The position numbers were made by a program, and so were the translations under genes. From Candidatus Yonathbacteria bacterium (GTDB lineage Bacteria > Patescibacteriota > Minisyncoccia > Phycocordibacterales > JACNGX01): a stretch of DNA of 64,000 nucleotides. The stretch is taken from positions 75,769 to 139,768 of the forward strand of contig JAAXWR010000001.1 of the NCBI GenBank assembly GCA_013334825.1, in the 5' to 3' direction. This document shows positions 1-49,473 of this stretch, in pieces; position 1 is the first letter of the stretch, and each line of letters begins with the position of its first letter. Below the pieces are notes generated by a model, which made no database searches, had not been told where the DNA came from, and worked only from the letters and a program-made list of their open reading frames with translations.

Positions 1-1470
<1,470 letters not shown>

Positions 1471-1620
1471 GACGCCCGTTTCGCGGATAGCGAAACTGAT
1501 GTCGGTCCTATCTTTTTTGATAGAGAAGTGTTTGTCTCGGAGCTTTGAATTGAGACAGCAGTAGCGTGCGCTACAAACAACGAACGAGACAAAAGAAAGA
1601 GCGTTTTCATACGAAAAGAA

Positions 1621-1647
1621 AAACGCCTATTAGGCGTTTTTCTTTTG
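1621..1647 (+). terminator. Rho-independent terminator after 16S (AAACGCC-TATTA-GGCGTTT + T-run); a second GC hairpin follows at 1657-1681
   Basis: Perfect 7-bp stem followed by TTTTTCTTTTG. Confidence 0.7.
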
Positions 1648-1833
1648 CCCAAAAAAGCGCGCCGACACGCTGTCGGCGCGCCAAATTCTAAATTCTAAAT
1701 CCGAAATCCTAAACAAATAAGAAGCGCAAGAGCAAACCGCGTGCTTCGCCGGAGAAGGAAAGCATTGACATATTATATATCTATAGTAGTATTTTTTTAG
1801 ATTGTAAATCAATATAAACTAAAAGTATCAGCA

Positions 1834-2412
1834 ATGAAACAAGAAACCAGGGATTCTTTAAGGGATATCGTAAGGAGATTTGCGGTAAGTGAAATCTTTG
1901 AGAATAAGATATCAATTTCAACGCCAACGATGTTTGTCGTTGATGGCGTATGGGGAAAGTGGGATTCGCAAAAGCTCGTTGCACGCATAAAAGACAGGAT
2001 CACGCATTCCATGGTACAAAAACTTCTTGGAGTGAAAGATTCGGAACTTAATAACGTTGATGGAGAATTGCGCAATCTCCTCAAGGGTCTTATCGAGAGA
2101 AAGATGAAGTACCATATTTTGGTCTACGAGAATCTCACCATCGTCACAGCCTATATGGATTTTCTTGTTGAGATTACAGCCGAGCATGGTGCTGATATGA
2201 AGAAACTGTTAAGTCGCCTGAAGCCCTCTATGGTTGATGACATGGTTACGAAGCTATTATCTGTCGAACCTCTGCCGGCACTTCTCTCGGGGGTTTACGG
2301 ACATGAGATGGATGCTCCGTATGAGTATCCTTCGGTTCTAACAACGCGCAAGCAGATATTGGCAAATGCTATAGAAATGCAAAAAATGCTTGTGACACTT
2401 GAAGCTATTTGA
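1834..2412 (+). CDS. hypothetical protein (192 aa)
   Basis: Clean ORF, no recognisable motif. Confidence 0.5.
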   Translation: MKQETRDSLRDIVRRFAVSEIFENKISISTPTMFVVDGVWGKWDSQKLVARIKDRITHSMVQKLLGVKDSELNNVDGELRNLLKGLIERKMKYHILVYENLTIVTAYMDFLVEITAEHGADMKKLLSRLKPSMVDDMVTKLLSVEPLPALLSGVYGHEMDAPYEYPSVLTTRKQILANAIEMQKMLVTLEAI

Positions 2413-2475
2413 TGAATACACGCTCCTCTTCGAGGAGCGTTTTATATATCTAATGTCTCGTGATACAATGTCTCC

Positions 2476-3069
2476 ATGACAAAAGCTATATTGTTTGACC
2501 TGGATGGTCTTGTGATTATCGGACAGGGAAAATTGTTCAGCGATCGCGTTTCGGAAGAAATGCATATTCCGTCGGAGTCGATATCCGAATTCTTTACCAA
2601 AGATTTCCGAGAGTGTTCTTTCGGGAGGTCTGATTTGAAAGAGAATATTGCACCCTATCTTGTCGCTTGGGGATATAAAGGAACGGTTGATGATTTTTTA
2701 AGATACTGGTTTGAAGGGGAGAGTCATACAGATGAAGAGGTTTTATCATTGGTAAATACGCTACGTTCTCGCGGAATTGAATGCTATATCGCGACACGTC
2801 AAGAAAAGTACAGAAAAGAATATTTGATGAATGTTGTGGGGTTGAAAGACAAGTTTGATGGTATATTCGCAACATGTGATATCGGATACGATAAATGGGA
2901 GGAAGGATATTGGAAATATGTTTTTGATAAGTTGAATATGATCCCGGAGGAAATTATGTTCTTTTGTGATAGTGAGAAGAATGTTGAGAACGCAAAGACA
3001 TTTGGTGTCGAAGCATACTTCTACACAGATATAAATCTTTTAAAAGAAAAGATTGCACATCTTTTGTAA
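2476..3069 (+). CDS. HAD-superfamily hydrolase
   Basis: N-terminal ILFDLDGLVI (HAD motif I DxDG); -10-like TACAAT 6 nt upstream of the ATG. Confidence 0.75.
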   Translation: MTKAILFDLDGLVIIGQGKLFSDRVSEEMHIPSESISEFFTKDFRECSFGRSDLKENIAPYLVAWGYKGTVDDFLRYWFEGESHTDEEVLSLVNTLRSRGIECYIATRQEKYRKEYLMNVVGLKDKFDGIFATCDIGYDKWEEGYWKYVFDKLNMIPEEIMFFCDSEKNVENAKTFGVEAYFYTDINLLKEKIAHLL

Positions 3070-3449
3070 TAGTGCACACGTCCAGTCGTCTGTTTTTGGT
3101 CTACACTGTGGGATGTTTTTGTTTTGAATGTGTGTCACTTGAACATTTGAATTTGTTTAGGATTTAGAGCTTCATGCTTCGGATTTCGCCCGTTTGGGTT
3201 TTGTTGCCTATTGGGGTTATTTTTGCTATAGTTTTCTTCGGTTCGCCGAAGCGAATGAGATTCGCGAAGGCGACCCTTGATGCGCTTTCAGTACGCCGAA
3301 GCCTTGGCGGAGGCGACCTGCCTTCGCTAAAGCTTCGGCGAGGTGAAGCCCGCCTTCGTCCGCAAGCGGACTTCGGCGAGGTGAAACAGTCCTGATATGT
3401 TCCATATAAATACGTCACTCGGACGTTATAAGAATGAATACGACCAATA

Positions 3450-3486
3450 GTGCGCTTCGTGCGCGTTTATCAGGCAGGTTAGAGCG
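3450..3486 (+). pseudogene. truncated copy of the tRNA-Ile(GAU) 5' half (acceptor through anticodon loop), ends in the CCTGAT|ATGTTCCATATA junction
   Basis: GCGCGTTTATCAGGCAGGTTAGAGCGCAGTCCTGAT matches the 5' half of the intact tRNA at 3562; part of a ~100-nt tandem duplicated unit (3397-3561). Confidence 0.7.
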
Positions 3487-3561
3487 CAGTCCTGATATGT
3501 TCCATATATGCACTGCACTCGGATGATATACAAATGAGTACAATCAAATAGTGTCCCGTGT

Positions 3562-3635
3562 GCGCGTTTAGCTCAGGTGGTTAGAGCGCAGTCCTGATAA
3601 GACTGAGGTCCCAGGTTCGAGTCCTGGAACGCGCA
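3562..3635 (+). tRNA. tRNA-Ile (anticodon GAU)
   Basis: Acceptor GCGCGTT/AACGCGC, D-arm TAGCTCAGGTGGTTAGAGC, anticodon loop CTGATAA, T-arm CCAGGTTCGAGTCCTGG. No encoded CCA. Flanked by a perfect 17-bp inverted repeat (3529-3545 / 3648-3664). Confidence 0.9.
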
Positions 3636-3689
3636 CACGGAACAGTATTGTACTCATTTGTATGACATCCTCGTTTGTGCATATAAGAC

Positions 3690-3960
3690 AGAGGTCCCAT
3701 GTTCCTGCCATGAACCCTACGTGGTTCATGGCGAGTCCTGGAACGCGCACGAAGCGCAGTACGTATTCATTCTTATGCCGTCCTCGCTAGTATTTATAAG
3801 ACTGAGGTCCCAGGTTTTTACCATGAACCCTACGTGGTTCATGGCGAGTTCTGGAACGCGCACGAAGCGCAGTACGTATTCATTCTTATGCCGTCCTCGC
3901 TAGTATTTATAAGACTGAGGTCCCAGGTTCCTGCCGTGAACCACGTAGGGTTCATCGCGA
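3690..3960 (+). repeat. ~2.5 tandem ~114-nt units, each a copy of the tRNA-Ile 3' half with a 29-nt palindrome (CCATGAACCCTACGTGGTTCATGG) inserted in the T-loop
   Basis: ATAAGACTGAGGTCCCAGGTT-[palindrome]-GAGTCCTGGAACGCGCAC repeated at 3690-3800 and 3805-3915, with a partial third copy. Confidence 0.8.
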
Positions 3961-4046
3961 GCCCCGGAGTTTGTGTGTGTGAAAAAAGATATGTTTCTGC
4001 AATATTGAGCCTGAGGATATTTGATTATAAATGAGCCCCACTAATT

Positions 4047-6875
4047 ATGGAATTACTGTCCTTGGTAAAAATAGGAATTCATAAATTGCCGATAAATATA
4101 TCCGGGTGGTTTAAACGTGAAAATTCTCCTGTAGATAAAAGACACATTGAGACAACTGTAAATGTTGGGAGTGTTACCCAACACATACAACAAAATATAC
4201 TAATTGCTTCCAACAATACACTCCCAGACCTTTTACAAAAAGGTACTGATTCTTTGGCTCAACTTCGTCAACCCTCAGCCGTGTTACCTAATAGTTTAAG
4301 TGAGACTATTGTAATCGAAACAACAAAAGAAGATAAAACAGTAATTAATAAAAGACTTGATGAAGTTGTGGCGCTTATGAATCTCAACAGAATTGATGAA
4401 GCTCTTCCATTACTTTTAACAATTCTGGCGGAAATAAAAAATAAATCAACATACATCAAAGAACAAACAAGAACATACAATAATCTTGGAGTAATTTATA
4501 ATCAACCAAAACCATCAAGTGATTACGACAAAGCAATTGAGTATTTCAATTTAGCTTTAGAAAAAGACCCGTCATTCACAAAATCCAAAGTAAATCTTAT
4601 ATCAGCTTATCTTAATAAGGATACAACAGAATCAATTGAAAGGGCCCATGATATGGCTAGGGCTTTGTGGTCTGTAGAAAAAACAGGAGATGTTTTGCAA
4701 GTTTTGCTTTGGGGTATTTATAAAAAATCTAACACAGAAGAAGTTTTTAAGTTTCTTCATGAAGAAAAATCTACCACAAGTGATTTAATAGAAAATAAAA
4801 GTGGTTTACTTAATATGGTGTCCGCTTTCTATCTTGAAGCTGGAAAATTTGAAGAAGGTTTTGTTTGTGCAGATAAAGCTGTTACTTTGTCTCCAGATGA
4901 ACCAGAATTTTTAACCATGAAAGCTAAAGCATCAATGGTAAAAGTTCAACAAAATGAAATCCCTTCAGAATTTGATGTCGTGCCACGTTTGAGTGACTAT
5001 AAAGGAATAAGTACGGCCTTGGATTTATTTTATCAGGCAGAAAAAATGGCCGAGATGCAACAAAAAACATATCTTCTACCTGAAATACGATATGGAATAA
5101 GTATGGGATTGATATGGCTTGGCAAATATGATGAATCAAAGTATAAATTAAAACAATTAAGAGCAGTACCTGATTTATCTGAACCTTTAGAGCATCAAAT
5201 CAATGTCTTAGATTTCGCAACACATTTGCATAATCGTGATTTTGAAACTGCTTATAATACACTCATTACAAGCTCCACCTATTCAAAAATAAGCTACCAA
5301 GAGAAACGCAGGATCTCAAGAGTATTTCTGCTTAACGGCGCACCCGAACAAGCAAAAAACTTATTAGATGAATTAGCAGTAGAAGCAGAGCAGAAAAAAG
5401 ATGTTTACTATTGGTTTGATTTAAGCACAGCATCAGTCCTTCTTGGAAATCACCAAGAGGCTATTAGTTCTGCGAGTAAGGTAAAAGAACTTACAAAGGG
5501 GGCTGAAGAAGAGTTACGAAAAACAGCACTCTCTCATTTTAATGCAGTTAACTATCATTACAGCAAGCCAGATAATGGAGAAAATAGTGAGACAGACAGA
5601 ATGGTTCAAGGAATGATGGATTTTCAAAATGAATTTCCAGCTGAAAAAATAATGACGCCCATTCAAGCAATAGATGAAAGTGGACAGTTAACAAATGAAA
5701 TAAAAGATATGTTGACCTCATTTAAAGATCGCTATGAAAACATTAGAGAAGTATTTAAGACCACTCCAACCCCAGTATATTTTCTTGAAAAAACATTTCA
5801 TAGGTCTTTTGCGCATGAAATAACTTTTAGAAATGATCCAGAATTTACTATTGAATTTAATGCTGTTGACCCAGCCACTTTTGATGAATTAAAAAATAAC
5901 TTTGGGCAAGCTGAGTCTTTTGTTTTTGATTATCTCTCATTGCTTGATTTAGCAAAAATGGACTTCTTGGGTTTTTTGGATAAATTGAATAAACCTATTT
6001 TTATACACGAAGAACTTTTTCAAAAAATTCAATTGGAATTACTTCAAAATGAAATTGATGAATTGCGCACCCTGTGGAATTTCCTAAGAAAAAGTAAAAC
6101 TGTACATTTCATTCATGGAGACACAGAAGCGGATATTAAATTAGAGAGAATTGATGACGTGTTTGATAAATGGTTGGTTCAAAGTATTAAGTATGCTAAA
6201 TCTAAAAAAGCTACATTTGTAACTAATGATTTTAGAATGTATATTTCCTTGAAATTTGAAGAAATAACCCCTTTGAATATAATGCCGATTCTTAATTTTT
6301 GGCTTGAAGGAAAATTCATTGATGAAAAGATGTATTCTAGGGCAATTGGTGACCTGGCTGAAAGATTTTATATTTTTATTCCGTACAGCAGTGACCAGCT
6401 TTTCGAAATCGTTTTAGAAGATAAGGGGAAAATAACGTTGAGAAGTTATCATTTAGTGCAAGAAATCTTCCTACCCGGATCAAATGTTCAGAGTTTCGCA
6501 AGAGTTTTTGCCGGTTTTATCAATTTATTTTGGAAAACAGGTTCATTATCTGAAGACAAAATAAACTGGGTCAAGTTTCTTACAAACGTAATTGTCGAAA
6601 CTATTGACAACCGTTTCTCAATAGTAAAAGGCAGTATCAACAAAGTCGATTATGATATTTTATGTAAAGATTTAGAGCCCATTGTCATAAATCTCGGTGT
6701 TATTTGGAATATGGCAATTCAGAATGGAACGAGAGATGATCTAATTGCATTAAGGGGTATAGTTGATGAGGCCTTGAATAAAGAATATCTTGTTAGATCA
6801 AAAGATATTTTTCATGAAAAAATCAAAAAATCCATAGAGGGCCTTACTTTAAAGAAGGAATTAGTAGAGAATTAG
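4047..6875 (+). CDS. large hypothetical protein (942 aa) with N-terminal TPR-like repeats; markedly AT-rich versus its neighbours
   Basis: TPR-like NNLGVIYNQ...AIEYFNLALEKDP; compositional shift; sits directly downstream of the tRNA-Ile repeat scar. Confidence 0.6.
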   Translation: MELLSLVKIGIHKLPINISGWFKRENSPVDKRHIETTVNVGSVTQHIQQNILIASNNTLPDLLQKGTDSLAQLRQPSAVLPNSLSETIVIETTKEDKTVINKRLDEVVALMNLNRIDEALPLLLTILAEIKNKSTYIKEQTRTYNNLGVIYNQPKPSSDYDKAIEYFNLALEKDPSFTKSKVNLISAYLNKDTTESIERAHDMARALWSVEKTGDVLQVLLWGIYKKSNTEEVFKFLHEEKSTTSDLIENKSGLLNMVSAFYLEAGKFEEGFVCADKAVTLSPDEPEFLTMKAKASMVKVQQNEIPSEFDVVPRLSDYKGISTALDLFYQAEKMAEMQQKTYLLPEIRYGISMGLIWLGKYDESKYKLKQLRAVPDLSEPLEHQINVLDFATHLHNRDFETAYNTLITSSTYSKISYQEKRRISRVFLLNGAPEQAKNLLDELAVEAEQKKDVYYWFDLSTASVLLGNHQEAISSASKVKELTKGAEEELRKTALSHFNAVNYHYSKPDNGENSETDRMVQGMMDFQNEFPAEKIMTPIQAIDESGQLTNEIKDMLTSFKDRYENIREVFKTTPTPVYFLEKTFHRSFAHEITFRNDPEFTIEFNAVDPATFDELKNNFGQAESFVFDYLSLLDLAKMDFLGFLDKLNKPIFIHEELFQKIQLELLQNEIDELRTLWNFLRKSKTVHFIHGDTEADIKLERIDDVFDKWLVQSIKYAKSKKATFVTNDFRMYISLKFEEITPLNIMPILNFWLEGKFIDEKMYSRAIGDLAERFYIFIPYSSDQLFEIVLEDKGKITLRSYHLVQEIFLPGSNVQSFARVFAGFINLFWKTGSLSEDKINWVKFLTNVIVETIDNRFSIVKGSINKVDYDILCKDLEPIVINLGVIWNMAIQNGTRDDLIALRGIVDEALNKEYLVRSKDIFHEKIKKSIEGLTLKKELVEN

Positions 6876-16120: not shown

Positions 16121-16315
16121 TCATTTTTTATTGTCATAGATTGAATCCTGCATAGTTTTAGTTGTTTTTCGATATCACTTTTATACATAACGGATGTGCA
16201 TAAAGTGAAATTAGTATCAGTCCATTCACTTTTTCAGTAACAATGTCATTTGCAAAAGTGGGGATGAATCCACATTGTGAGTAACATAAAACAGTCGTCT
16301 TCGTATGTTCCCTAG

Positions 16316-16400
16316 CACTATGCACTGTGCACCACGTAGGATGCACAGCAAGCCACGTGGGATGCACAGCACGCCATGTAGGGTGCAGGGCAAGCGTACT
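16316..16400. repeat. three tandem ~21-nt repeats (CCACGTRGGATGCACAGCA); inverted copy at 49681-49790
   Basis: Direct reading; RC matches the 49681-49790 block. Confidence 0.8.
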
Positions 16401-21860: not shown

Positions 21861-21940
21861 GATAATTTTACGCTCAAAGCGCAAAAAACACCCACAAGGG
21901 TGTTTTTTGCTTAACTATCGCTCGGATGTTGGGCGTGAGT

Positions 21941-21983
21941 GGGTGTACCAGGACTTGAACCTGGAACCGCCGAGGTATATGTT
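21941..21983 (-). pseudogene. tRNA 3'-half fragment (anticodon-loop 3' side, T-arm CCAGGTTCAAGTCCTGG, acceptor TACACCC) with no 5' half; bounded by the junction TATATGGAACAT
   Basis: RC reads ATATACCTCGGCGGTTCCAGGTTCAAGTCCTGGTACACCCA; no matching GGGTGTA acceptor upstream. Confidence 0.6.
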
Positions 21984-22018
21984 CCATATAATGACGGCAC
22001 TCAAACGTTAAAAATACG

Positions 22019-22092
22019 TGGGCGCACAGGGACTTGAACCCCGAACCGCCGAGGTATAAGCTCGGTGCTCTAACCAATTGAGCTATGCGCCC
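22019..22092 (-). tRNA. tRNA-Ile (anticodon UAU; decodes AUA)
   Basis: RC: GGGCGCA-TA-GCTCAATTGGTTAGAGC-A-CCGAG-CTTATAC-CTCGG-CGGTT-CGGGGTTCAAGTCCCTG-TGCGCCC-A; 5-bp anticodon stem, U33, anticodon T-A-T. Confidence 0.75.
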
Positions 22093-22190
22093 ACGTATTC
22101 TCACGTTTTCGTTTGTCATTATATATAAACATATAATGACATCATTCGAACGATATGTATGCAAGCATACAATCGATTCTCATTCGTCAT

Positions 22191-22228
22191 TATAAGCTCG
22201 GTGCTCTAACCAATTGAGCTATGCGCCC
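22191..22228 (-). pseudogene. partial duplicate of the tRNA-Ile(UAU) 5' half
   Basis: TATAAGCTCGGTGCTCTAACCAATTGAGCTATGCGCCC identical to the corresponding part of the 22019-22092 gene. Confidence 0.8.
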
Positions 22229-22762
22229 ACGTCCGGTCTCCGTTCTTTCGTGAAATTTTAAGTTCGGGGCTCCTTCGCCTTGTCAGAGCTTTAGGGCAGG
22301 TAACCAACTGCCGTGTCCTCCGAAGCCTTGGCGAAGGAGAATGCTAGGCACCCCTATATGTTCCCTTATGTGATATAAAATACATAACTTGGGATATAAG
22401 CATGGTACTACAGAATAACTTTTTTTTCCACCTATTGTAATAGAGTGAGTGCAGTAAGTGTTGCTTCCTACATTCTAGTTTGAATTGCAACAAATAGTAT
22501 TCCTTGGTGGCACTTTTCCTAACACAAACACCTCATACTGAATCAAATAGCCGAGACGTTTTTTCGCCTGATAATTCCGAAAGGACGGGCCTCTTTAAAA
22601 TGAAAAAAATGTGGTGTAATGTTGTTGTTCAATTGCCCGCCATATCCCAGTATCTCTCATACCAAGGTTAAACCTTGGGAGTATGCCCTGTACCAACATT
22701 AAGAGTTGGTACAGAACGTGTATTGTCATGTCATGGAGCATTGCTCGTGTTACAATACTCGT

Positions 22763-25250: not shown

Positions 25251-27452
25251 CTAAACTTTCTCAAGTAGTGTGAGAAAGTCCTTCAATTTTTGTATTTTTT
25301 CTGGTTCACGCAATTTAATGGTCTCGTGTTGATCGTGCATATGCTCGTGCCAGTTGTTACTTAGAATCTCATCTTTGACTGCACATTTTCCATCGATTTT
25401 TTCTAGATACGCAGATATGCTCCCGTCTGCAAGCGTGCTTTTATCAAGCATGAAGTAATACTTATGTCTCAAGATTCTCTCTAGACATTTTCGGACTTTT
25501 CCTATGGCTTCGTCTACATTACGAGAGTTATCTGCCGCATCTTTAATATATTTGATATCTTTGAAATACTGCTCTTCAATCAACTCATCCACGTCACATT
25601 CTTCAAGTACTGAACCAAATGTTTTAGAATGTTTAATTCTTAGTATTTTCGTATCTGAAGAAGGCAACTTTTCTTGCAGTCTTCCCAAAAAACTATCATC
25701 ATGAGTTAGGATAATTACCTGTTCTGGTAAATCATCACTCTCATTTCTAATATCAATTATTGCTTTTGCTAGATAGTCTTTTCTGTTTGAATCAAAACTT
25801 GAAAAAGGATCATCTAGAATGACTATTTTACTTTTCAAATTTGAATCCGTTTTAAGACTTGAAATGAAAAAAGCCATTGCTAAGAGTCTTCGATCACTGT
25901 CACTGAGTGTGTTTCCAAAATACGCTTTATCCAAAGGCTCTTCATCTGACTGAGAACGTTTATTGGAAATTGGTACTGTTTCCCCATCGATAACAAACTC
26001 ATAATCAAGAAAGTGTGCATCAGATCGTGTGAGATTTGATTTGCTATTTAACTTTTGTATTGTAAAATCTGCCTTTAAAACATCCCTCAAGACCATGTTG
26101 ATTTGTTCCTGATTCTTTTCAATTGTACTTTTCGTTATCTTGTCTATCTTTTTCCGTAATGCATCAATTTTTACTTTCTTCATTTCAACAGCTTTTCCAG
26201 CTTGCTGGTATTTTTCTGCGAGAGTTACACCTTCTTTACTATGGCGGTATTGCGACAATTGAAACTGTTTCAATTCATTTTCAAGACCTTGTAATTTGAG
26301 AGCAGAAAACTCTTGTGTTTTTAATTCATTTAAAATTGAATGTAATTTTTTGATTTCTGAAACAAATACTTGAAAATGACTGTCTTCCGCTTCACAATTG
26401 ATAGGATGATTCAGATTTTTTAGTTTTTTTGCAACATCTTCATCAAGAGCTTTTTTGTTTTCCAACAATAGTTTTTTATCTAAAATATCTTCACACTTAA
26501 CCCCGAGAGAAGTGAATTTCGCTATTTCTGCTTCTGGATCAAAGCGCAAGAATCTCTCTCCGTATGTTTCTATTTCTTGTCGTGTTGTTGTGTAAGTTTC
26601 CCCGAAGACTTTTTTGAAATCCTTAATCAGATCGGTGACTGGTGCAAGATTTTGTCCGCAGAATATACATGCATCTGAATCTTTTTTCAACAAGGTGACA
26701 CCGTCTGCCAGAAAATTCTTTGACGCATGTTCATCATTCCAGTGATTGCGAATATGTTCATCAATATTCTTTTCAGCGGATGTGTCCAGGGTTTTCTGCA
26801 TTGCAGCAAAAAAATTATCAAACGTACTTGCAAGAGGTGATGTTGGTACTAACTGCTTGAGTGCATCACTATTTTTTAGTCTTTGAATTTTTTCTTTTTT
26901 CTTTTCAACCTCCTCATCAATATTTGTAATCTCTATGGCTTTCAAGAAAAAATCAAATGTGCCTAGATCATATTTTGTATATTCTGTTTTTATTTGGTCA
27001 CGTTGTTTCTCTAGAGCATCTTGTTCATCACGCAATTCCTTTAACTTCGTGACTTTTTGTCCCACGTTTTCACCAACAAAGATGCCGTGTAAAGATGATT
27101 TGTGTTTATGATCTATCTCGTCACCTACAAAAACTGAATTATGTATAAAATTGTTATCAAATATAGCAATGTTTGGATTATTCCAATTTCCATTTGCTAG
27201 AGTTAGATGCTTGTTGCTACTATCTAAAATATCAATCACGATGTCGCCAGTGTGCCCAAAACTTTTCTTTCCTTTTATACATTTCTGATCAGAATTTTTG
27301 AGAGATCTAAAAATGGTGGTTAGGGTACTTTTACCATAGGTGTTGTAACCAAAAATGATTGTATGTTTAAGAAACCTTAAATCGTCATTGCCACCATTGG
27401 CAAAGTTTTTGAATTTTCCCAACCCCTCAATTTTTAATATCTTACTAATCAT
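25251..27452 (-). CDS. SMC-like ABC ATPase (733 aa) with a coiled-coil insert carrying CxxC (CIFCGQ, res ~262) and a ~150-aa C-terminal extra domain; candidate RloC/PrrC-like anticodon nuclease
   Basis: Walker A GYNTYGKST, signature-like LSDSDRRLLAMAF, Walker B/D-loop IVILDDPFSSFD, H-loop ILTHDD; C-terminus VRKCLERILRH; last gene of the R-M operon. Confidence 0.45.
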   Translation of the reverse strand: MISKILKIEGLGKFKNFANGGNDDLRFLKHTIIFGYNTYGKSTLTTIFRSLKNSDQKCIKGKKSFGHTGDIVIDILDSSNKHLTLANGNWNNPNIAIFDNNFIHNSVFVGDEIDHKHKSSLHGIFVGENVGQKVTKLKELRDEQDALEKQRDQIKTEYTKYDLGTFDFFLKAIEITNIDEEVEKKKEKIQRLKNSDALKQLVPTSPLASTFDNFFAAMQKTLDTSAEKNIDEHIRNHWNDEHASKNFLADGVTLLKKDSDACIFCGQNLAPVTDLIKDFKKVFGETYTTTRQEIETYGERFLRFDPEAEIAKFTSLGVKCEDILDKKLLLENKKALDEDVAKKLKNLNHPINCEAEDSHFQVFVSEIKKLHSILNELKTQEFSALKLQGLENELKQFQLSQYRHSKEGVTLAEKYQQAGKAVEMKKVKIDALRKKIDKITKSTIEKNQEQINMVLRDVLKADFTIQKLNSKSNLTRSDAHFLDYEFVIDGETVPISNKRSQSDEEPLDKAYFGNTLSDSDRRLLAMAFFISSLKTDSNLKSKIVILDDPFSSFDSNRKDYLAKAIIDIRNESDDLPEQVIILTHDDSFLGRLQEKLPSSDTKILRIKHSKTFGSVLEECDVDELIEEQYFKDIKYIKDAADNSRNVDEAIGKVRKCLERILRHKYYFMLDKSTLADGSISAYLEKIDGKCAVKDEILSNNWHEHMHDQHETIKLREPEKIQKLKDFLTLLEKV

Positions 27453-27458
27453 ACAAAT

Positions 27459-28229
27459 TTATTTCTTCATTCTTTGCTTGGCGATTCTTGCATATTCTTT
27501 ATCTTGCTCAATTCCAATCCATTTTCGACCATATTTTTTTGCTACATATGTCGTTGTGCCACTTCCCAAAAATGGATCAAGAACAATATCGCCTTTGTTG
27601 GAGCTTGCTAAAATAATACGCGTGAGCATTTCCTCAGGCTTTTGCGTAGGATGCAATGCGCGACCATTATCGCCACGCAAGCGCTCTTTTCCTTGGACAA
27701 GCGGAAGTTCCCAGAAATCACGCATTTGTTTTAGGTTTCCGTCCTTTTGCTTATTAGGATTTATTTTCTTTATTTCTTCGTAGTTGAATGTCCATCCACT
27801 TCCTTTTACAGCCCAAATAACAAACTCAGTTGAGTGTGTGAAGACACGCCTTGTCATATTCGGCATGGCGTTTGTCTTGTACCAAGTGATGACGTTATTT
27901 ACTTTGTAATCAAGTTGTTTTAATACAATCATCACCTCCGCGATGTTGTGATAACTACAGGCGACATAAATTGATCCTTTATCTTTCAAAGCTCTATCGC
28001 AAGCACCCAGCCATTTTCTCGTAAATTGTAAATATTCCGGTGCAGACATTTTGTCCCATTCTTCGTCGACCATGTACCAATCTCCGCCAGTCTTGTTGCC
28101 TTTCCAGTGCAAACCGTTTCCAGATAGATTATAAGGAGGATCAGCAAAAACCAAATCAATAGATTTTTCCTCAACCTTTTTATTGAGAGTGTCTATACAG
28201 TCTCCATTGTAAATAATATTTGTTTTCAT
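27459..28229 (-). CDS. beta-class DNA methyltransferase (N6-adenine or N4-cytosine, DPPY motif)
   Basis: DLVFADPPYNL (motif IV) N-terminal, VLDPFLGSGTT (motif I) C-terminal. Confidence 0.85.
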   Translation of the reverse strand: MKTNIIYNGDCIDTLNKKVEEKSIDLVFADPPYNLSGNGLHWKGNKTGGDWYMVDEEWDKMSAPEYLQFTRKWLGACDRALKDKGSIYVACSYHNIAEVMIVLKQLDYKVNNVITWYKTNAMPNMTRRVFTHSTEFVIWAVKGSGWTFNYEEIKKINPNKQKDGNLKQMRDFWELPLVQGKERLRGDNGRALHPTQKPEEMLTRIILASSNKGDIVLDPFLGSGTTTYVAKKYGRKWIGIEQDKEYARIAKQRMKK

Positions 28230-28232
28230 GTT

Positions 28233-30056
28233 TTATGTTTGAGAAATAAGGCTTTCTTGCCATACTGAAATGGTATTTGGAATATTTCGTAACCATTCAT
28301 TTGAATCGCTAAATAATTTTGATGACTCCAAGATTTCATCATACAGGCGAGCAATTTCTGAGTGTTGCAAAAATCTCTTTTTTGATTTCATTTGCACCAA
28401 CACTTTCAACACAGAAACAAATTGTCTAATCGAAAGAGGTATGATTCTTTGTGGTTGTCCCTCGTACTCGTATTTTATTGCTGTCCAGAAAGTGTTTACT
28501 GTATCTCTGTGCAACTTCGGGGCAATAAACAGACAATAGGAAGGCTTGTTATTATGTTTTTGTTCGAAGTCTCGTAAATGTCGCATAACTGGTTGACCTT
28601 CGTTGTACCATTGATCGCGACCATTCAGCATCGTGACTTCACAAATGGCATTAAAACTATCGTAAAAACACTCTATGTCTGGTGTGTTTGCGGGGGCAGT
28701 AAATGTTGGTTCATTGTCGTCACCGACAGGATAGTTTGGTTGAATTTTCAATGCATCATTTAAAGCGTGCAATCCAAGTGCAGATAATTTTTCAAGTAAG
28801 ATCGGACGATCATCAAAATCAAAAATGTTTTCAAGATCATTTATGTAAGATTCGACCTGTTCAATCGCTTGAGATTTACTGTGACTTTCTGCGTTTTGTA
28901 GTTCTCGTCTATATACTCTCAATTCTGTAATATATTTTCTTAGTTCATCAACCTGCATTTCCTGGTGACTCTTAATTTCAAGATTATCTTCCTGCAAAGT
29001 AGATTCGTATTCACGTATTTCCTCAATAAGTCTTTCGGCAATCTCATTATATTTTTCTGCAGTTTCCCAAGGTAGTTTCGGTTCCGAAATATCGGAAATG
29101 TAAGCAAGATAATCTTCTTTTGATTCGAAATGTTTTGCTTGTGCGTTATCATATGCAAGCAGAGAATCAATTTCGATTTTTCTCCTTTCCTCAAGATCAA
29201 CATAGAAACCACCGCCACGAATATGAATGTATCGAGTTAAGCGGAAATAACGGATTGCATTATCTCCATAATCTTGCAAATTGCTTAATAAGCCACCTAT
29301 TTCTTGTTCATCATCGGTTTCTAGAAAATCACTTGCAAACCGCCGTTTGTAAGCATCAAATATTTCTTTTTGCTCCTGCTTTGTTTTGCCACTTAATTCA
29401 TCTCGCAAGGTGATGATTTTTTCTGCATACATGCTGATACTTTGATAATGTATCAAAGTAGGAGCAAAGAGAGACAATTCTTTTTTACTAATGCCTTTTG
29501 CATTGTTGCCACGCGCAGTCTCTTTTTGGTTAACTTCGTTGATTAAATGGAGTGTTCCTATAAACGGTTTGATATCGTAGTCTCCGTTATCTTGATAATC
29601 TCGACTGTCTGGATTTGGTATTTGCCACTTTAAGAAGCTTCTAAAAAATATTTCTCCAAAATCAAAATCATCTTTTAGAAATAATTTTCCTAATTCTGTT
29701 ATTTTTACCTTGTTATCTTCGATGGCGACAAGCCCTATTTTTTTGAGAGGGTTCATTGACTGCCTCCCACGCATTGCAGGATCTTCATAATTTTTCGCAT
29801 TAAAAATTTCTTCCGCCTGCTCAAGAGAGATGTCTCTTGATGGATCATCAACCAAATCAACATGATCTTGCATAAGTCCATTGTAGAATTGGCGACTTCC
29901 ATAACCGTATATTCTGTTCTGGATCAGCAAAATTTGATATTTCTTTTGGTTCTCAAGATTCCACTCAAAATTTTCAAGCTGTTGCAAAACAATCAAGAAA
30001 TTTCTCAATCTCTCAGGATTTCGTAATGTTGTTGTGATTGACCAGGGTTTTTTCAT
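28233..30056 (-). CDS. putative restriction endonuclease (607 aa; size and two-MTase context suggest a Type IIS, AlwI-family-like enzyme)
   Basis: AT-rich ORF sandwiched between two MTase genes with 2-3 nt spacers; possible PD...ExK-like PDIE...CEVT near the C-terminus; family assignment is inference only. Confidence 0.4.
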   Translation of the reverse strand: MKKPWSITTTLRNPERLRNFLIVLQQLENFEWNLENQKKYQILLIQNRIYGYGSRQFYNGLMQDHVDLVDDPSRDISLEQAEEIFNAKNYEDPAMRGRQSMNPLKKIGLVAIEDNKVKITELGKLFLKDDFDFGEIFFRSFLKWQIPNPDSRDYQDNGDYDIKPFIGTLHLINEVNQKETARGNNAKGISKKELSLFAPTLIHYQSISMYAEKIITLRDELSGKTKQEQKEIFDAYKRRFASDFLETDDEQEIGGLLSNLQDYGDNAIRYFRLTRYIHIRGGGFYVDLEERRKIEIDSLLAYDNAQAKHFESKEDYLAYISDISEPKLPWETAEKYNEIAERLIEEIREYESTLQEDNLEIKSHQEMQVDELRKYITELRVYRRELQNAESHSKSQAIEQVESYINDLENIFDFDDRPILLEKLSALGLHALNDALKIQPNYPVGDDNEPTFTAPANTPDIECFYDSFNAICEVTMLNGRDQWYNEGQPVMRHLRDFEQKHNNKPSYCLFIAPKLHRDTVNTFWTAIKYEYEGQPQRIIPLSIRQFVSVLKVLVQMKSKKRFLQHSEIARLYDEILESSKLFSDSNEWLRNIPNTISVWQESLISQT

Positions 30057-30058
30057 AA

Positions 30059-31867
30059 TTATTTTGTTACTTTACAGTAGAAAATGCGTTCCGCATTATC
30101 TTCTCCGTTACTTTTTCCTGTCGTAAAGGCTTTGTAATCTTTTTCAAAAATCTCAACATCACCCTTGTCGTTTAGAATTTGTAGAATTTCATCATCACTC
30201 ATACGCGCATTAGAACGCCCATCTTTGGAATCTCCAGTATTATTGTATGAAAGTAAAATATGCTCGCAGTTTGCATTTCTGATAAGGTCTGCAAAAGCAC
30301 TCGTTGCACTTTTTAGGCAATAGTCACTTTTAATGTGAGAGCGATCCATTTTTTTACCAATCCCAATAACCTCTGGCTTTTTCCATTCCGCAAGATTTTC
30401 TAAAAGATGGTAGGCATCCGAGTATTGACGTGAATTATATGGTGGATCTACGTATAAAACATCACAAGAAATTTTTCTGATAAGGGTATTTGCGTCTTCT
30501 CTATAAATTTCATTATTTGTGTTGCGAATGTAATCAACATCAGGAATCAAAAGCTTTATGGGCTGCAACATGTCTAGCTTTTTACGAAAAGCGTCATAAT
30601 GACCAACGGTATTGGCAACTTTATCGACAGCATAAAGCAAGGAACAAATCAAAATATTTTTTTCTTCCTCATTTTCTGCTATCTTTTCAATTTCTGCACG
30701 CATTGCCCCAATCTTTCTTGCGTTTTCTTTTGTAAAATACGTCCCGCCAAAATGTTCAGAAAAATAGTTTTCCTTGTCGTTCGATAAATTATTAAGAACC
30801 TCTATCTTTTCAGAGATGCCTTGTCGCATGTCCCGATTGACTCCCAAAAACGCATATAGGCAAGCATAATTTGCTGAGAGAAAATCATTGGAAATGATTT
30901 TGATTTCTGGACTATTGAACCTTTCTCCAACGACACCTGTGCCTGCAAAAATATCGCAAAGTGAATTGATTGATCCACATTTTTCAGAAATTATGTCTTC
31001 GATAAATCCAAGCAATTTGTGTTTATTTCCCAAATATCTTCTGTTTTGAAGTTGGAAATACCCGCTTTTTGATGCTTGGGGCTGGAAGTAATGTTTATCA
31101 ATTTTTTTTATACTTACTTCGTAAGTCGGTTTTTCAATTTCTAATAGACCAAACAGCGTTTCTTGCATCCCGTCAGCGACATAATCAAAACCTTTATTTT
31201 GATCCTTTAGTTTTTCGTAAAAACTGTAATATCCTTTTTGAGAGACAATGACAAAATCAATGACAGAAATTCCCATTATTTCTCCTGCTTGTGCTATTTT
31301 TTCAACAATTTGAATATCTTTCTCGCTCGGCGTTGAATCACCAGACGGATGATTGTGTATAAGAATCACGCTTGCGGCGTTAAGTTCTGTTGCAGGATAG
31401 AAAATCTCTCTCGGGTGCAGTAGTGTCTTATCAAGAAGTCCAACACTGATAACTTCTTTTTTTAATAAAATATTTCTTGCATTCAGATACAGACAAACGA
31501 GATGTTCTTTTTTCTTATCTCTCAAATCGTAAGTTAAAGAGATAACATCTTGAGAATTACTGATTTTTATTTCGTTTGTCCGATCATCTGCATAAAATCT
31601 TTTTACTAAAGAAATTGCTGACGCAATTTGCAACGCTTTTGCTTGTCCGATTCCAGAGATTTCTTGCAAATTATCAACGGTAATATTCAAAAAGTTTTTG
31701 CCAAATTTCCTAATTATTTCTTGAGACAATTCTTGAACATTCGTGCCTTTGATACCGCTACCGAGCAAAATAGCCAAAAGATCACTTTTTGAAAGTGCTT
31801 CAGGACCTTTCTTGAGAAATCTTTCTCGCGGTCTATCAATTTTTGGAATATCTTTGATCTTTGTCAT
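30059..31867 (-). CDS. fusion protein: N-terminal RadC-like JAB/MPN domain + C-terminal Dam-family (alpha-class, D12) N6-adenine DNA methyltransferase
   Basis: RadC: HLVCLYLNARN...ILIHNHPSGDSTPSEKDIQI; MTase: RRYLGNKHKLL (motif I region), DVLYVDPPYNS (motif IV). Confidence 0.8.
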   Translation of the reverse strand: MTKIKDIPKIDRPRERFLKKGPEALSKSDLLAILLGSGIKGTNVQELSQEIIRKFGKNFLNITVDNLQEISGIGQAKALQIASAISLVKRFYADDRTNEIKISNSQDVISLTYDLRDKKKEHLVCLYLNARNILLKKEVISVGLLDKTLLHPREIFYPATELNAASVILIHNHPSGDSTPSEKDIQIVEKIAQAGEIMGISVIDFVIVSQKGYYSFYEKLKDQNKGFDYVADGMQETLFGLLEIEKPTYEVSIKKIDKHYFQPQASKSGYFQLQNRRYLGNKHKLLGFIEDIISEKCGSINSLCDIFAGTGVVGERFNSPEIKIISNDFLSANYACLYAFLGVNRDMRQGISEKIEVLNNLSNDKENYFSEHFGGTYFTKENARKIGAMRAEIEKIAENEEEKNILICSLLYAVDKVANTVGHYDAFRKKLDMLQPIKLLIPDVDYIRNTNNEIYREDANTLIRKISCDVLYVDPPYNSRQYSDAYHLLENLAEWKKPEVIGIGKKMDRSHIKSDYCLKSATSAFADLIRNANCEHILLSYNNTGDSKDGRSNARMSDDEILQILNDKGDVEIFEKDYKAFTTGKSNGEDNAERIFYCKVTK

Positions 31868-32239: not shown

Positions 32240-32620
32240 CGCCGAAAAAGGGGAGGGAGGGAGGGATTCTCTCCTTACAGGAGCAGTACAGGTTTTCCAT
32301 TTTTTTGGAGCAAAGCACCTCAAACATATGGGAGAACCTTTTTCCGCGACATCCCCGCTCTTTGCTCCGCAAAGGACGGGGTGCGCGGACCCGCCCAGCT
32401 CTTTCAAAAAGGGCTGGGCGGGCGAATCATTTCTGGGAGGGATTCGGTCACCAGTTCTAAGCATATTGCTCCAAGTATTCGCAATCCGCTAAGAACTCGC
32501 GACCCCGTCGCCGCGCTCCGACAAGATAAATCTTGTCGGGCTTCGCGCGCGGCTTTTTCGAATCCCTCCCTCTCTCGCAACATATAAATCGCCGGGCGAA
32601 TTCTCGCCCGGCTCATTATG
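32240..32620. repeat. GC-rich non-coding stretch with multiple partial copies of the tRNA-Ser T-arm/acceptor motif (GGAGGGATTC / GAATCCCTCC) and a long inverted repeat abutting the tRNA 3' end
   Basis: Copies at ~32246, ~32436, 32560-32583 (inverted) and in the tRNA itself; no coherent ORF; overlapping ORFs on both strands are spurious. Confidence 0.6.
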
Positions 32621-32623
32621 TTG

Positions 32624-32710
32624 CGGAGAGGGAGGGATTCGAACCCTCGAGACGATTGCTCGCCTAACACCTTAGCAGGGTGCCCCGTTCGACCGCTCCG
32701 GCACCTCTCC
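32624..32710 (-). tRNA. tRNA-Ser (anticodon GCU), long variable arm
   Basis: RC: GGAGAGG-TG-CCGGAGCGGTCGAACGG-GGCACC-CTGCTAA-GGTGT-[long variable arm]-GAGGGTTCGAATCCCTC-CCTCTCC-G. Confidence 0.88.
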
Positions 32711-32737
32711 AAATTATTTCTTTGTATTATTTAGCTT

Positions 32738-32818
32738 TCTCGGTGATGACGATTGCTCGCCTCACGCCTTAGCTGGGATGGGAGCGAGACCCGGAAGCTC
32801 CCATGGTCGACCGCTCCG
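32738..32818 (-). pseudogene. degenerate partial copy of tRNA-Ser (5' two-thirds) with a 27-nt hairpin insertion, lacking T-arm and 3' end
   Basis: GACGATTGCTCGCCTCACGCCTTAGCTGGG-[ATGGGAGCGAGACCCGGAAGCTCCCAT]-GGTCGACCGCTCCGGCACCTCTCC versus the intact gene. Confidence 0.75.
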
Positions 32819-32960
32819 GCACCTCTCCAATATAACAAGCGCCTTTAGGAAAGTGCTTGGTTTGGACAGTGTAGCATAGTTTTTTTGATTTGAGGAGACG
32901 GATGCGAGGTTTGTAAAAAATCTGGACGGTTACCCGTCCAGTATTATTTCGGTATGTTTG

Positions 32961-46400: not shown

Positions 46401-46403
46401 TAT

Positions 46404-49427: not shown

Positions 49428-49473
49428 GTATAAGTTTCAAGATTGATTTCGAAGTATGAACTGGTATGCTTGC

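Follow-up and report, generated by a model that had tools for sequence, protein, structure and literature searches.

How does a working tRNA gene come to lie among broken copies of itself? The question is raised by the tRNA-Ile(GAU) locus of Candidatus Yonathbacteria, a bacterium of the candidate phyla radiation (CPR), studied here in a window of 64 kb (the whole stretch of DNA that was analysed, 64,000 nucleotides). A single intact tRNA-Ile(GAU) is found there (3562-3636; ARAGORN and Rfam agree, with 69.9 bits for RF00005 and a gathering score of 29), preceded by two units of a leader and a 5' half (3397-3496 and 3497-3598) and followed by three units of a 3' half and a trailer (3685-3797, 3798-3910 and 3911-~3975). 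All breaks of the array fall at one anticodon-loop position, CCTGAT|AAGAC, and the motif counts are higher than in all dinucleotide shuffles (expected ~0).

The nested copies at tRNA-Ile(GAU)

The locus is made of the following features:

3230-3386, plus strand: GC-rich hairpin-repeat block, CTTCGGCGAGGTGAA twice and CCTTCGCTAAAGCTTCGGC (sequence and repeat analysis)
3387-3396, plus strand: outermost 5'-half remnant CAGTCCTGAT (A0), whose end is the anticodon-loop break (sequence reading)
3397-3496, plus strand: left arm of a putative outer, dead cassette (A1), pairing with the trailers 3742-3783 and 3855-3896
3497-3561, plus strand: left arm (ATGTTCC and leader) of a putative inner, live cassette, pairing with 3628-3684 (49 Watson-Crick to 1 GU)
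3562-3636, plus strand: intact tRNA-Ile(GAU) (ARAGORN; Rfam RF00005)
3637-3684, plus strand: right arm or trailer of the putative inner cassette, with the end ...GTGCATAT|AAGAC (repeat and pairing analysis)
3685-3797, plus strand: B1, the outer dead tRNA's 3' half, carrying a T-loop hairpin insert (3705-3732), then trailer and right arm
3798-3910, plus strand: B2, tandem duplicate of B1 with a T-loop insert at 3818-3845 (62-nt trailer identity)
3911-3975, plus strand: B3, third 3' half, with an inverted T-loop hairpin (3931-3958)
4047-6875, plus strand: gene of a 942-aa TPR protein, abutting the array

The copies lie one inside another and not merely in tandem. The live tRNA, with a leader of ~65 nt and a trailer of ~48 nt that pair with each other, interrupts, exactly at the anticodon loop, an older tRNA-Ile(GAU), which has a leader and a trailer of its own, mutually complementary and unlike the inner pair in sequence; outside this older gene there is a 10-nt remnant of an even older 5' half. 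The outer leader (A1, in the 3397-3496 unit) pairs with the trailers of B1 and B2 and the inner leader (A2) with the inner trailer, and because each leader pairs with its own trailer the minimum free energy structure of the region is one giant hairpin, with -270.6 kcal/mol for 3380-3990 compared with -175 +/- 6 for shuffles (z = -15.3). The helices are nearly pure Watson-Crick (47:1 and 49:1 relative to GU, that is 47-49 Watson-Crick pairs per GAU frame). Along the outer left arm, ATGTTCC is followed by stem A (ATAAATAC), by the internal loop GTCACTC and by stems B-D (leader); the degenerate 5' half that comes next (3461-3496) has lost 2 nt from its D arm.

Most of what had been noticed in the initial annotation stands in this layout, in part with corrected numbers. 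The intact tRNA and the 17-bp inverted repeat around it were found as described, the latter extending beyond 17 bp (arms 3521-3544 and 3647-3670, plus 3547-3568 and 3628-3649), as was the outer inverted repeat, in which 3421-3442 pairs with 3762-3783 and 3875-3896. The tandem duplication claimed for a ~100-nt upstream unit holds in that there are two units, both terminating in CAGTCCTGAT|ATGTTCCATATA (the CCTGAT| ends), with 80% identity between 3387-3447 and 3487-3547 and two exact occurrences of GGTTAGAGCGCAGTCCTGATA, and fails in that the arrangement is nested. Downstream, the ~2.5 copies proposed are replaced by three units of 113 nt (2.9 copies with 87% matches in TRF). The palindrome reported as 29 nt is indeed inserted in the T-loop of each 3' half, where it measures 28 nt (3705-3732 and 3818-3845), and its third copy (3931-3958) is inverted.

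Other aspects of the array bear on its history. The outer and inner frames differ by roughly 27% and the tRNA halves by 5-10% (manual count), and this much larger difference of the frames suggests that the two units had already grown apart, each as a working gene, when nesting took place; of the arm substitutions that distinguish the two frames, about 12 are mirrored on the opposite arm. The junctions A0|A1 and A1|A2 could have been copied by tandem duplication and are therefore not taken as independent events, and B2 (3798-3910) has no 5' partner, which counts against the insertion of cassettes as the origin of the array. The hairpin block at 3230-3386 takes the expected place of the outermost leader and 5' half, and members of its family also interrupt the D-loop region in dead 5' halves of tRNA-Ile(UAU), both at 22270-22340 and in a related contig (L042). 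The tail of B3 is homologous to the 3' part of a 193-nt dispersed repeat.

A shared frame at tRNA-Ile(UAU) and in a related species

The same architecture and the same junction motif, AT|ATGTTCCATATA...CACTC, are found at a second tRNA-Ile of the window, tRNA-Ile(UAU) (22018-22092), which is encoded on the opposite strand:

21939-21978, minus strand: 3' half left from an outer dead tRNA-Ile(UAU), with its end at the anticodon-loop break (plus strand ...GAGGTAT|ATGTTCC)
21979-22124, plus strand: putative cassette U1, ATGTTCCATATAATGAC-GGCACTC-AAACG..., intact tRNA-Ile(UAU) at 22018-22092 (minus strand), ...CGTTT-TCGTTT-GTCATTATAT
22125-22193, plus strand: U2, an 'empty' 69-nt hairpin of stem A, asymmetric loop and stem B, without a tRNA
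22194-22232, minus strand: 5' half belonging to the outer dead tRNA-Ile(UAU), with 100% identity to the live gene across 42 nt
22257-22410, plus strand: older debris, two degenerate 5' halves, one with a GC-hairpin insert

U2 is located at the regenerated junction TAT|AAG, and a third junction (...CTAT|ATGTTCC...GATAT|AAGC, 22355-22394) lies within the older debris. Once joined, the outer UAU halves (21939-21978 and 22194-22232) are called by ARAGORN as tRNA-Ile(tat) at the default threshold and the outer GAU halves, freed of the T-loop insert, as tRNA-Ile(gat) at a relaxed threshold only, and on these calls the outer halves are read as former genes. The complete identity of the UAU 5' half to the live gene shows that gene conversion or recent duplication is active too.

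The left junctions are CCTGAT|ATGTTCCATATA, twice at GAU, and GAGGTAT|ATGTTCCATATA at UAU, and the right ones ...TAT|AAGAC and ...TAT|AAGCTC, so that all inserts follow (G/T)AT and precede AAG, with a shared ATA of 0-3 nt that could mask a target duplication. ATGTTCC is on the plus strand at both loci while the tRNA genes are on opposite strands (two loci only), the element being sense to tRNA-Ile(GAU) and antisense to tRNA-Ile(UAU); the GC skew is positive across the window, with a G-rich plus strand. A common frame is made of ATGTTCC, an 8-bp AT-rich stem, an asymmetric internal loop (NNCAYTC/TCRYTW) and a 5-bp stem. When five frames were aligned, 98.5% of 65 cells were paired, with two-sided changes at 6 of the 13 pairs and one-sided changes at none, a covariation score reached by 0 of 500 shuffles. 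The architecture of the frame is thus conserved and its stems co-vary, although arm-to-arm copying at the DNA level could mimic such 'compensatory' change without selection.

The nest also has a counterpart outside this genome, since the same architecture, with different copy numbers, is present in two metagenome contigs of a congeneric species at ~88% nucleotide identity. The initial annotation had named an identical arrangement in relatives as the observation that would speak against a scar; the relative's nest is of the same kind and differently arranged, U1 and U2 being shared in an otherwise different array. Between U1 and L042, arm X is 97% identical, the aligned arm Y 100% and the tRNA 100%, so that the U1 frame reaches 97-100% between species as against a genome average of ~88%; the orthologous U2 is 92.8% identical, with one two-sided stem change. 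The older layers of L042 and of the window have ends unlike those of the frame (ACTTTG..., ...ATTTT), and the older-layer flanks of L042 do not fold more stably than shuffles (-20.6 vs -23.7 +/- 2.8 kcal/mol), both of which weigh against inserted cassettes. The relative's UAU array was recovered from two independent JGI metagenomes, identical but for 3 SNPs, all of them in dead halves.

Altogether, the window has 4-5 cassette-type units, distributed over two loci in its 64 kb, and one relative has a different array; a structured search of the window gave no further copies. A search with ATGTTCCATATA-N7-CACTC in 185,579 GTDB species genomes returned 36 matches, with ~70 expected by chance (own estimate), the sole CPR one inspected falling in a coding region of a locus with no tRNA; in viral contigs the same pattern gave 2 chance matches and the tRNA-junction pattern 0. 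The relative's tRNA-Ile(GAU) locus was not found through the neighbouring genes, homologs of the HAD hydrolase (72-78%) and the glyoxalase (85-86%), whose loci showed no conserved synteny and no tRNA-Ile, and a spurious ORF inside the GAU array, used as a query, returned the known contig only.

Explanations for the nests

A single break position, with the junction motif recurring at a second, unrelated tRNA-Ile and in a relative, favours repeated site-specific insertion over random duplication. The reading that we prefer, though still short of even confidence, is that a whole tRNA-Ile travels in a small palindromic, non-autonomous cassette, which has repeatedly and site-specifically been inserted into the anticodon loop of the resident gene. 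Against it count the absence of a transposase, integrase or HUH enzyme from the 64-kb window and the occurrence of the cassette, as far as seen, at only two loci and in one relative. This reading has to be weighed against classical att scars, left by large integrase islands or prophages that entered repeatedly at tRNA-Ile and were later deleted, with the TPR gene as their last cargo. Anticodon-loop breaks and T-loop inserts would suit such a history, these being reportedly, after Williams in 2002, the two sublocations preferred by integrases in tRNA genes, and so would the three downstream 3' halves, a direct repeat of a tRNA segment that starts at the anticodon loop. Moreover, the gene abutting the array is, as the initial annotation had it, cargo-like: its GC content is 33% (window ~44%), its distribution is patchy, with only 64% identity to the best non-self homolog, and homologs on other contigs adjoin a large serine recombinase or an excisionase-like gene, so that it was probably acquired horizontally; a restriction-modification island likewise lies between tRNA-Ile(UAU) and tRNA-Ser. 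Nevertheless, duplication extends to the 5' halves, the complementarity of each leader to a single trailer implies units of a whole gene, and the inserted pieces are of ~190 nt, each with a whole tRNA, leaving only ~50 nt between successive 3' halves, compared with the 9-121 kb that separate the complete tRNA from its partial copy in documented islands (PMC9897764). No recombinase, transposase, integrase, HUH enzyme or RAYT is found in the 64-kb window (Pfam, about 50 ORFs), a distal attR or tRNA fragment was looked for beyond the TPR gene and is absent, and the UAU nests of L042 and L043 have no island nearby. Of the scar at a tRNA att site put forward initially, the single break position and the motif at the second tRNA-Ile and in the relative are retained and the classical island pattern is not, and we consider this origin unlikely.

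To about the same low degree we would credit a history with no mobile element, in which a quasi-palindrome around the anticodon loop, unstable by nature, had its left and right arms duplicated by hairpin template switching, slippage and unequal crossing-over, with correction from arm to arm maintaining their complementarity. The ratios of 47:1 and 49:1 and the lack of one-sided pair changes are what DNA-level copying would produce, the exact 62-nt trailer of B1 and B2 is a sign of recent tandem duplication, template switching is known to produce inversions such as that of the loop in the third T-loop hairpin, and partial or inverted copies accompany tRNA-Ser, tRNA-Tyr and tRNA-Thr of the window as well. 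Such instability leaves unexplained, however, why a motif and a frame are shared on one DNA strand by two tRNA genes of opposite strands, why the asymmetric internal loop stays uncorrected in all five frames, and why the frames are far more divergent than the tRNA halves. A functional RNA, whether the transcribed array served as a processing scaffold, a stabiliser or a decoy of tRNA halves, or the outer halves were spliced in trans or in cis, appears very unlikely, in spite of the very stable fold, a promoter-like site (3204-3232) upstream of the array, the 97-100% identity of the live UAU frame and a break adjoining the canonical intron position 37/38. The element is in opposite orientations relative to the two tRNA genes, its helices nearly lack G-U pairs, as in DNA palindromes rather than in selected RNA helices, and these two observations leave the regulatory or decoy RNA that had initially been suggested without support; furthermore, no bulge-helix-bulge (BHB) motif is seen by inspection at the junctions, neither a group I intron nor any other Rfam family is matched, and disabling changes and inter-sample SNPs fall in the dead halves. 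An assembly artefact of a repeat-rich metagenome bin might be suspected from the public MAG, which is split at the GAU array into two contigs overlapping by 127 nt, and is extremely improbable. Contig JAAXUO010000005 of GCA_013335985.1 is an exact match to 645-3644 of the window, JAAXUO010000002 of the same assembly equals it from 3518 on for at least 5 kb and consequently contains B1-B3, and an independent Logan contig from SRR11449211 covers 1134-3767, the three sequences being identical to the window over A1, the tRNA, B1 and B1-B3; the homologous UAU nest was also assembled independently in the two JGI metagenomes. The observation at the array is thus confirmed, its copies being genuine and an artefact excluded as their source.

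Under the insertion of tRNA-carrying cassettes, each cassette would consist of ATGTTCC, the hairpin frame and a complete tRNA-Ile, and would be inserted by an enzyme acting in trans, with a specificity for both sequence and structure, at AT^AAG in the anticodon stem-loop. Insertion would always be onto the same DNA strand, here the lagging-strand template, through an intermediate that is probably single-stranded or circular. The resident gene would be split and killed and the cassette would supply the working copy, and because it brings a replacement for the gene that it destroys, only cognate insertions would survive. The newest cassette would then enter the currently intact, innermost gene, building up a Russian doll, in which the right-hand unit may later have been duplicated in tandem (B1 giving B2), halves may have undergone gene conversion with one another, and two other families of small hairpin repeats may have invaded the T- and D-loops of the dead halves. 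Expression of the tRNA is predicted to be probably compatible with the nest, as RNase III would act on the long perfect helices that a read-through transcript forms. A bolder extension, which we regard as speculative and rather unlikely, is a selfish 'tRNA replacement cassette' of ~190 nt and of a previously undescribed kind, whose cargo tRNA-Ile holds its own insertion site and which would make the host dependent on it, spreading in a protein-free, gene-drive-like manner between CPR strains that naturally import DNA and leaving nested dead tRNAs as a fossil record.

If nested insertion were true, an essential tRNA gene would be repeatedly overwritten by a tiny cassette that brings the replacement. 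This would add a new route by which tRNA genes are turned over and replaced horizontally, and a new way for mobile elements to choose a target, namely one inside their cargo; past insertions could moreover be read as layers in CPR genomes, where the biology of mobile elements is poorly known. Should one of the duller readings apply, the loci still illustrate clearly how hairpins can destabilise a genome around its tRNA genes. In practice, short-read assemblies are broken at loci of this kind, the split public MAG being an example, and annotation may call spurious tRNAs there or miss real ones.

Known systems and genomic surroundings

No description of such a nest was found in the searchable literature on nested tRNA genes, CPR tRNA introns and insertion sequences that target the anticodon loop, and the closest parallels are partial. 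Integrative elements that target tRNA genes (tyrosine-integrase islands, prophages and ICEs, at anticodon-loop or T-loop sublocations) and the CIMEs derived from them, which lack an integrase, share the target, a breakpoint in the anticodon loop, an insert whose tRNA sequence restores function and, after serial events, arrays of partial copies. Unlike in those elements, the ~190-nt insert is here a complete tRNA with palindromic flanks instead of a 3' segment, the former gene persists with its two halves in nested order, and no integrase is nearby. Short non-autonomous hairpin DNAs such as REPINs, REPs and MITEs, moved in trans by RAYT or IS200/IS605-type Y1 enzymes, have co-varying stems, no clear target-site duplication and a strand-specific orientation as well; the ends of the units described here pair into a long hairpin, of which U2 is an empty 69-nt version, and the T-loop inserts carry a REPIN-like GTAG/CTAC core. 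REPIN-type elements also insert within other palindromes (PMC3733652), in a likeness to the nest. REPINs, however, are found in tens to hundreds of copies, carry no gene and usually have an identifiable RAYT, whereas here there are a handful of copies with a tRNA as cargo, the target is that very cargo and the window has no RAYT. The difference with IS200/IS605 is that the ends pair mutually instead of forming separate subterminal left and right hairpins, and that there is no TnpA in the window, where no ORF matched Y1_Tnp and the search for a recombinase or transposase met only a GIY-YIG protein (46404-46667) and the restriction-modification genes.

Archaeal split, permuted and intron-containing tRNAs, together with bacterial group I introns in anticodon loops, offer another likeness, in that the interruption is next to 37/38 and complementary leaders and trailers link the halves. 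In contrast with archaeal split tRNAs and bacterial group I introns, the host is here a bacterium and there is neither a BHB nor a group I signature, the orientation of the insert is not fixed relative to the tRNA, and the outer halves look decayed. Both kinds of intron were rejected as candidates, the BHB type, defined by two 3-nt bulges around a 4-bp helix, on the lack of such a central helix at the junctions (inspection) and on the unfixed orientation, and the group I type on Rfam, which in E-value mode gives at the GAU and UAU loci tRNA plus noise and no other family. Nested transposons, twintrons and self-targeting insertion sequences likewise enter their own copies, with the youngest innermost; the nesting of those elements is incidental, whereas a target within the cargo would make it expected at every successful insertion.

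Upstream of the array, the window opens with a 16S rRNA gene:

1-1470, plus strand: 16S rRNA gene without its 5' end, which lies beyond the window edge (1202 bits for Rfam SSU_rRNA_bacteria, model 184-1533)

A disrupted rRNA operon had been suspected at this locus, and the 16S gene does lie 2.1 kb upstream of tRNA-Ile(GAU) on the same strand, but two protein genes stand between them and neither a 23S gene nor a tRNA-Ala is found in the next 60 kb of the window; the position of the 16S without a 23S fits a fragmented rRNA operon. Elsewhere in the window, tRNA-Ser, tRNA-Tyr and tRNA-Thr have local partial or inverted copies too.

The nested tRNA-Ile(GAU) array

The source organism is a candidate-phyla-radiation (CPR) bacterium, whose proteins carry the name "Candidatus Yonathbacteria" at NCBI, and the region around its tRNA-Ile(GAU) is built as follows:

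1-1470: 16S rRNA gene with CPR-style insertions
between the 16S rRNA gene and the tRNA array: two protein genes, an unknown 192-aa protein and a HAD hydrolase
3387-3396: 10-nt remnant of a third left unit
3397-3496 and 3497-3598: two left units of ~100 nt, each ATGTTCC, a ~55-nt leader and a tRNA 5' half
3562-3636: sole intact tRNA-Ile(GAU), on which ARAGORN and Rfam concur
3685-3797, 3798-3910 and 3911-~3975: three 113-nt right units (B1, B2 and B3)

Both left units end at CCTGAT in the anticodon loop, and all three right units begin on its 3' side, with AAGAC. B1 and B2 run from the T arm through the acceptor strand into a ~50-nt trailer, whereas B3 diverges past the T arm, lacks this trailer and ends in a tail homologous to the 3' portion of a dispersed 193-nt repeat. 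The T-loop of each of the three 3' halves contains a 28-nt hairpin, flipped in the third. The sequence statements of the initial annotation on this region were borne out save for small corrections, since the repeats that it had described as ~2.5 downstream copies with a 29-nt palindrome are three copies with a 28-nt insert. Motif counts at the array exceed those of all dinucleotide shuffles, and the fold of the region is 15 standard deviations better than that of shuffled sequence. Moreover, the join and the repeats are backed by separate assemblies, because two contigs of the public MAG GCA_013335985.1 that break here (one reaching 3644, the other running from 3518 through B1-B3 and further) match the window exactly and overlap by 127 nt, and an independent Logan assembly of SRR11449211 covers 1134-3767.

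The B1 and B2 trailers are complementary to the outer leader (3421-3467), and the trailer immediately 3' of the live tRNA to the inner leader (3521-3568), which gives the order outer-left (inner-left, tRNA, inner-right) outer-right. The region is predicted to fold into a single giant hairpin tipped by the cloverleaf. When the outer halves are joined in silico, a tRNA-like sequence results, matched by ARAGORN only at a relaxed threshold and only without the T-loop insert, from which we read the outer layer as a former tRNA-Ile(GAU) gene whose anticodon loop was split by a ~190-nt piece holding a complete tRNA-Ile(GAU). As the B1 and B2 trailers share 62 nt exactly and B2 has no 5' partner, B2 is most simply regarded as a later tandem duplicate of B1.

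A second nest at tRNA-Ile(UAU)

A repeat search of the whole window found a similarly nested build at tRNA-Ile(UAU), with the following plus-strand order:

dead 3' half, last bases GAGGTAT
ATGTTCCATATAATGAC-GGCACTC-AAACG...
22018-22092, minus strand: live tRNA-Ile(UAU)
...CGTTT-TCGTTT-GTCATTATAT
U2, a 69-nt "empty" hairpin that keeps the frame (the palindromic flanks) and lacks the tRNA
AAGCTCGG..., dead 5' half, 100% identical to the live gene over 42 nt

Past this 5' half lie more degenerate halves and a third ...TAT^ATGTTCC junction, and the outer halves, once joined, are called tRNA-Ile(tat) by ARAGORN at default settings. The insert has one DNA-strand orientation at both loci, where the tRNA genes are oppositely directed; the common target is the sequence AT^AAG in the anticodon stem-loop and not a fixed tRNA position. 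Besides tRNA-Ile(GAU), ARAGORN thus predicts a tRNA-Ile with a genomic UAU anticodon: in bacteria AUA is usually read by a modified CAU anticodon, and a UAU tRNA-Ile would be uncommon.

When metagenomes were scanned for the junction motif, two of the 8 hits were true relatives (contigs L042 and L043, collinear with the window at about 88% nucleotide identity), and the between-species comparison of the nest covers the tRNA-Ile(UAU) locus. As in the window, the relatives have the live cassette and U2, yet their array differs in its three 5' halves and one additional junction, so that the identical arrangement that would have spoken for a conserved structural RNA locus is not what we find. L042 and L043, which come from different samples, differ by only three SNPs, all within dead halves. 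The shared units, the differing array and the agreement of both samples indicate that the nest is old, heritable and evolving, and no artefact. Between the window and the related species, the live tRNA is 100% identical and the frame arms 97% (left) and 100% (aligned part of the right), in comparison with 93% for U2 and 87.5% for the dead 3' half.

Frame architecture and proposed origin of the nests

Five frames were compared, three bearing a tRNA, which start with ATGTTCC, and two from U2, which start with AAAC or AAAT. In all five, an 8-bp AT-rich stem is followed by the asymmetric internal loop NNCAYTC / TCRYTW and then by a 5-bp stem; the GAU frames continue with a stem of 15-17 bp, a bulge of 4-5 nt and another stem, continuous with the acceptor stem. 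In the aligned shared part, pairing holds in 98.5% of cells, two-sided changes occur in 6 of 13 pairs and one-sided changes in none of the 13, a covariation score reached by no shuffle; likewise, about 12 substitutions that separate the outer GAU frame from the inner one are mirrored on the opposite arm. The helices are almost purely Watson-Crick (WC:GU 47:1 and 49:1), which together with the strand orientation points to DNA palindromes rather than RNA helices under selection. The asymmetry and conservation of the internal loop in all frames suggest a recognition feature. By our own count, the GAU frames differ at roughly a quarter of positions and the tRNA halves at 5-10%, which we take as a sign that both units were working genes while they diverged and that one entered the other only afterwards. 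An alternative, plausible given the identical UAU 5' halves, is that the tRNA parts underwent gene conversion at a later stage.

Nesting, a constant break site, a constant DNA strand and decay of the outer layers are observed, as are a junction motif and frame common to two unrelated tRNA genes and a second species. We tentatively propose, as a mechanism with a real but still not predominant likelihood, that a small non-autonomous cassette (ATGTTCC, the palindromic frame and a whole tRNA-Ile) inserts at a specific site, AT^AAG in the anticodon stem-loop, by means of an enzyme supplied in trans. Insertion would destroy the resident gene yet bring a replacement, being thus tolerated only if cognate, and the next insertion would target the new intact gene, as in a Russian doll. 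U2 fits this model as an empty frame at a regenerated TAT^AAG junction in an already dead gene. GC skew is positive over the whole window, which makes the motif strand the template for lagging-strand synthesis at both loci, a bias compatible, for n=2 loci, with single-strand, hairpin-dependent insertion of the IS200/IS605 or REPIN type. No recombinase or transposase was found within the 64-kb window, and this missing enzyme and the small number of independent insertions are among the main weaknesses of the model.

Classical island integration followed by deletion, which seems unlikely, would account for the breaks in the anticodon loop, for the 3' halves and for the adjoining low-GC TPR gene, whose patchily distributed relatives lie beside a serine recombinase or excisionase-like gene elsewhere, but leaves the duplicated 5' halves, the leader-trailer matching and the ~50-nt spacing unexplained. 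Moreover, the integrase is absent and no distal attR was found at the GAU array; in documented islands, the partial and complete tRNA copies lie 9-121 kb apart (PMC9897764). The att-site recombination scar of the initial annotation is supported in part, by its constant break site and by a junction motif repeated at a second tRNA gene and species, but not as an integrase-borne, kilobase-scale insertion. Palindrome-driven instability without any mobile element is an equally improbable origin: it would explain why the helices are purely Watson-Crick, why B2 duplicates B1, why one hairpin loop is flipped and why tRNA-Ser, tRNA-Tyr and tRNA-Thr have partial or inverted copies, but not why a motif and frame are common to two different genes. 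More doubtful still is a functional RNA or splicing system, to which the proposed regulatory or decoy structure would belong, as the insert lies in opposite orientations relative to the two tRNA genes, the outer halves have decayed, and the locus has neither a BHB nor a group I intron signature. An assembly artefact is excluded for practical purposes.

Returning to the cassette model, the locus resembles a minimal tRNA-targeting integrative element, comparable to an integrase-less CIME, and also, judged on 64 kb of genome, a REPIN or MITE with cargo. It differs from integrase islands (no integrase, no kilobase-scale insert, both tRNA halves duplicated) and from IS200/IS605 (no separate end hairpins, no TnpA). 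In the searchable literature we found no account of tRNA genes that lie within the anticodon loop of their own older copies.

Other small repeats and neighbouring genes

The 8-mer TATGTTCC occurs 14 times in the window, against 1.85 expected and a shuffle maximum of 6 (1185, 3396, 3496, 16304, 17904, 19515(-), 21978, 22357, 24130(-), 24176, 39786, 42967(-), 49766(-) and 58381(-)). Seven of the 14 lie at edges of intergenic repeat elements, some unrelated to tRNA-Ile (16304, 49766), and it may be a terminus or target common to several small element families. A dispersed hairpin-repeat family with core CC(T/C)ACGTGG / CCACGTAGG and internal GTAG/CTAC, as in GTAG-tagged REPs, is found at 3705-3732, 3818-3845, 3931-3958, 16300-16390, 46028-46404 and 49473-49777. 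It makes up the T-loop inserts of the GAU 3' halves, a tandem 193-nt element starting exactly at the tRNA-Trp 3' end (third copy at 49473) and 21-nt arrays, and is dynamic, since its array at 16.3 kb is absent from the collinear site in L043. A second GC-rich family, CCTTCGC...GCGAAGG / CTTCGGCGAGG (3230-3386, 22270-22340, L042 12020-12052), is inserted into dead tRNA-Ile halves at their D-loop region and also takes up the sequence ahead of the GAU array; hairpin repeats seem to land preferentially in the loops of dead tRNAs.

Rearranged tRNA regions besides tRNA-Ile are found at 32553-32830, 43690-43762 and 63480-63545. Upstream of tRNA-Ser(GCU) lies a pseudo-copy of the 5' two-thirds of this tRNA, which bears a hairpin insert and is kept in L042, and the tRNA-Ser, tRNA-Tyr and tRNA-Thr 3' ends lie in long palindromes with their own inverted 3'-end copy around a terminator-like hairpin.

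The 16S rRNA gene has its CPR-type insertions at about 925-990 and 1245-1395, and its 3' end (1440-1470) reads ...GGAAGCTGGTCGTGGAGTATG, the CCUCC anti-Shine-Dalgarno being absent at the expected position and nearby. The 942-aa TPR protein (4047-6875, 33% GC) has a best homolog at 64% identity and none close; relatives occur in Bacteroidota, Omnitrophota and Firestonebacteria, some with fused HTH and Mrr-type nuclease domains, and on two other contigs (L063, L064) they adjoin a large serine recombinase or an excisionase-like HTH_17 gene. This distribution and these neighbours suggest mobile cargo, possibly defence-related. Between tRNA-Ile(UAU) and tRNA-Ser(GCU), a low-GC (~35%) block (25251-31867) encodes an AAA_13 ATPase, an N6/N4 methylase, an AlwI-type restriction enzyme and a RadC-Dam fusion; it spans 6.7 kb in comparison with about 3.6 kb in L042, and is therefore a variable defence island. 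Finally, an 87-aa GIY-YIG nuclease-domain protein (46404-46667) lies directly past the tandem 193-nt repeats behind tRNA-Trp, and on the unrelated contig L064 another GIY-YIG gene overlaps tRNA-Glu.
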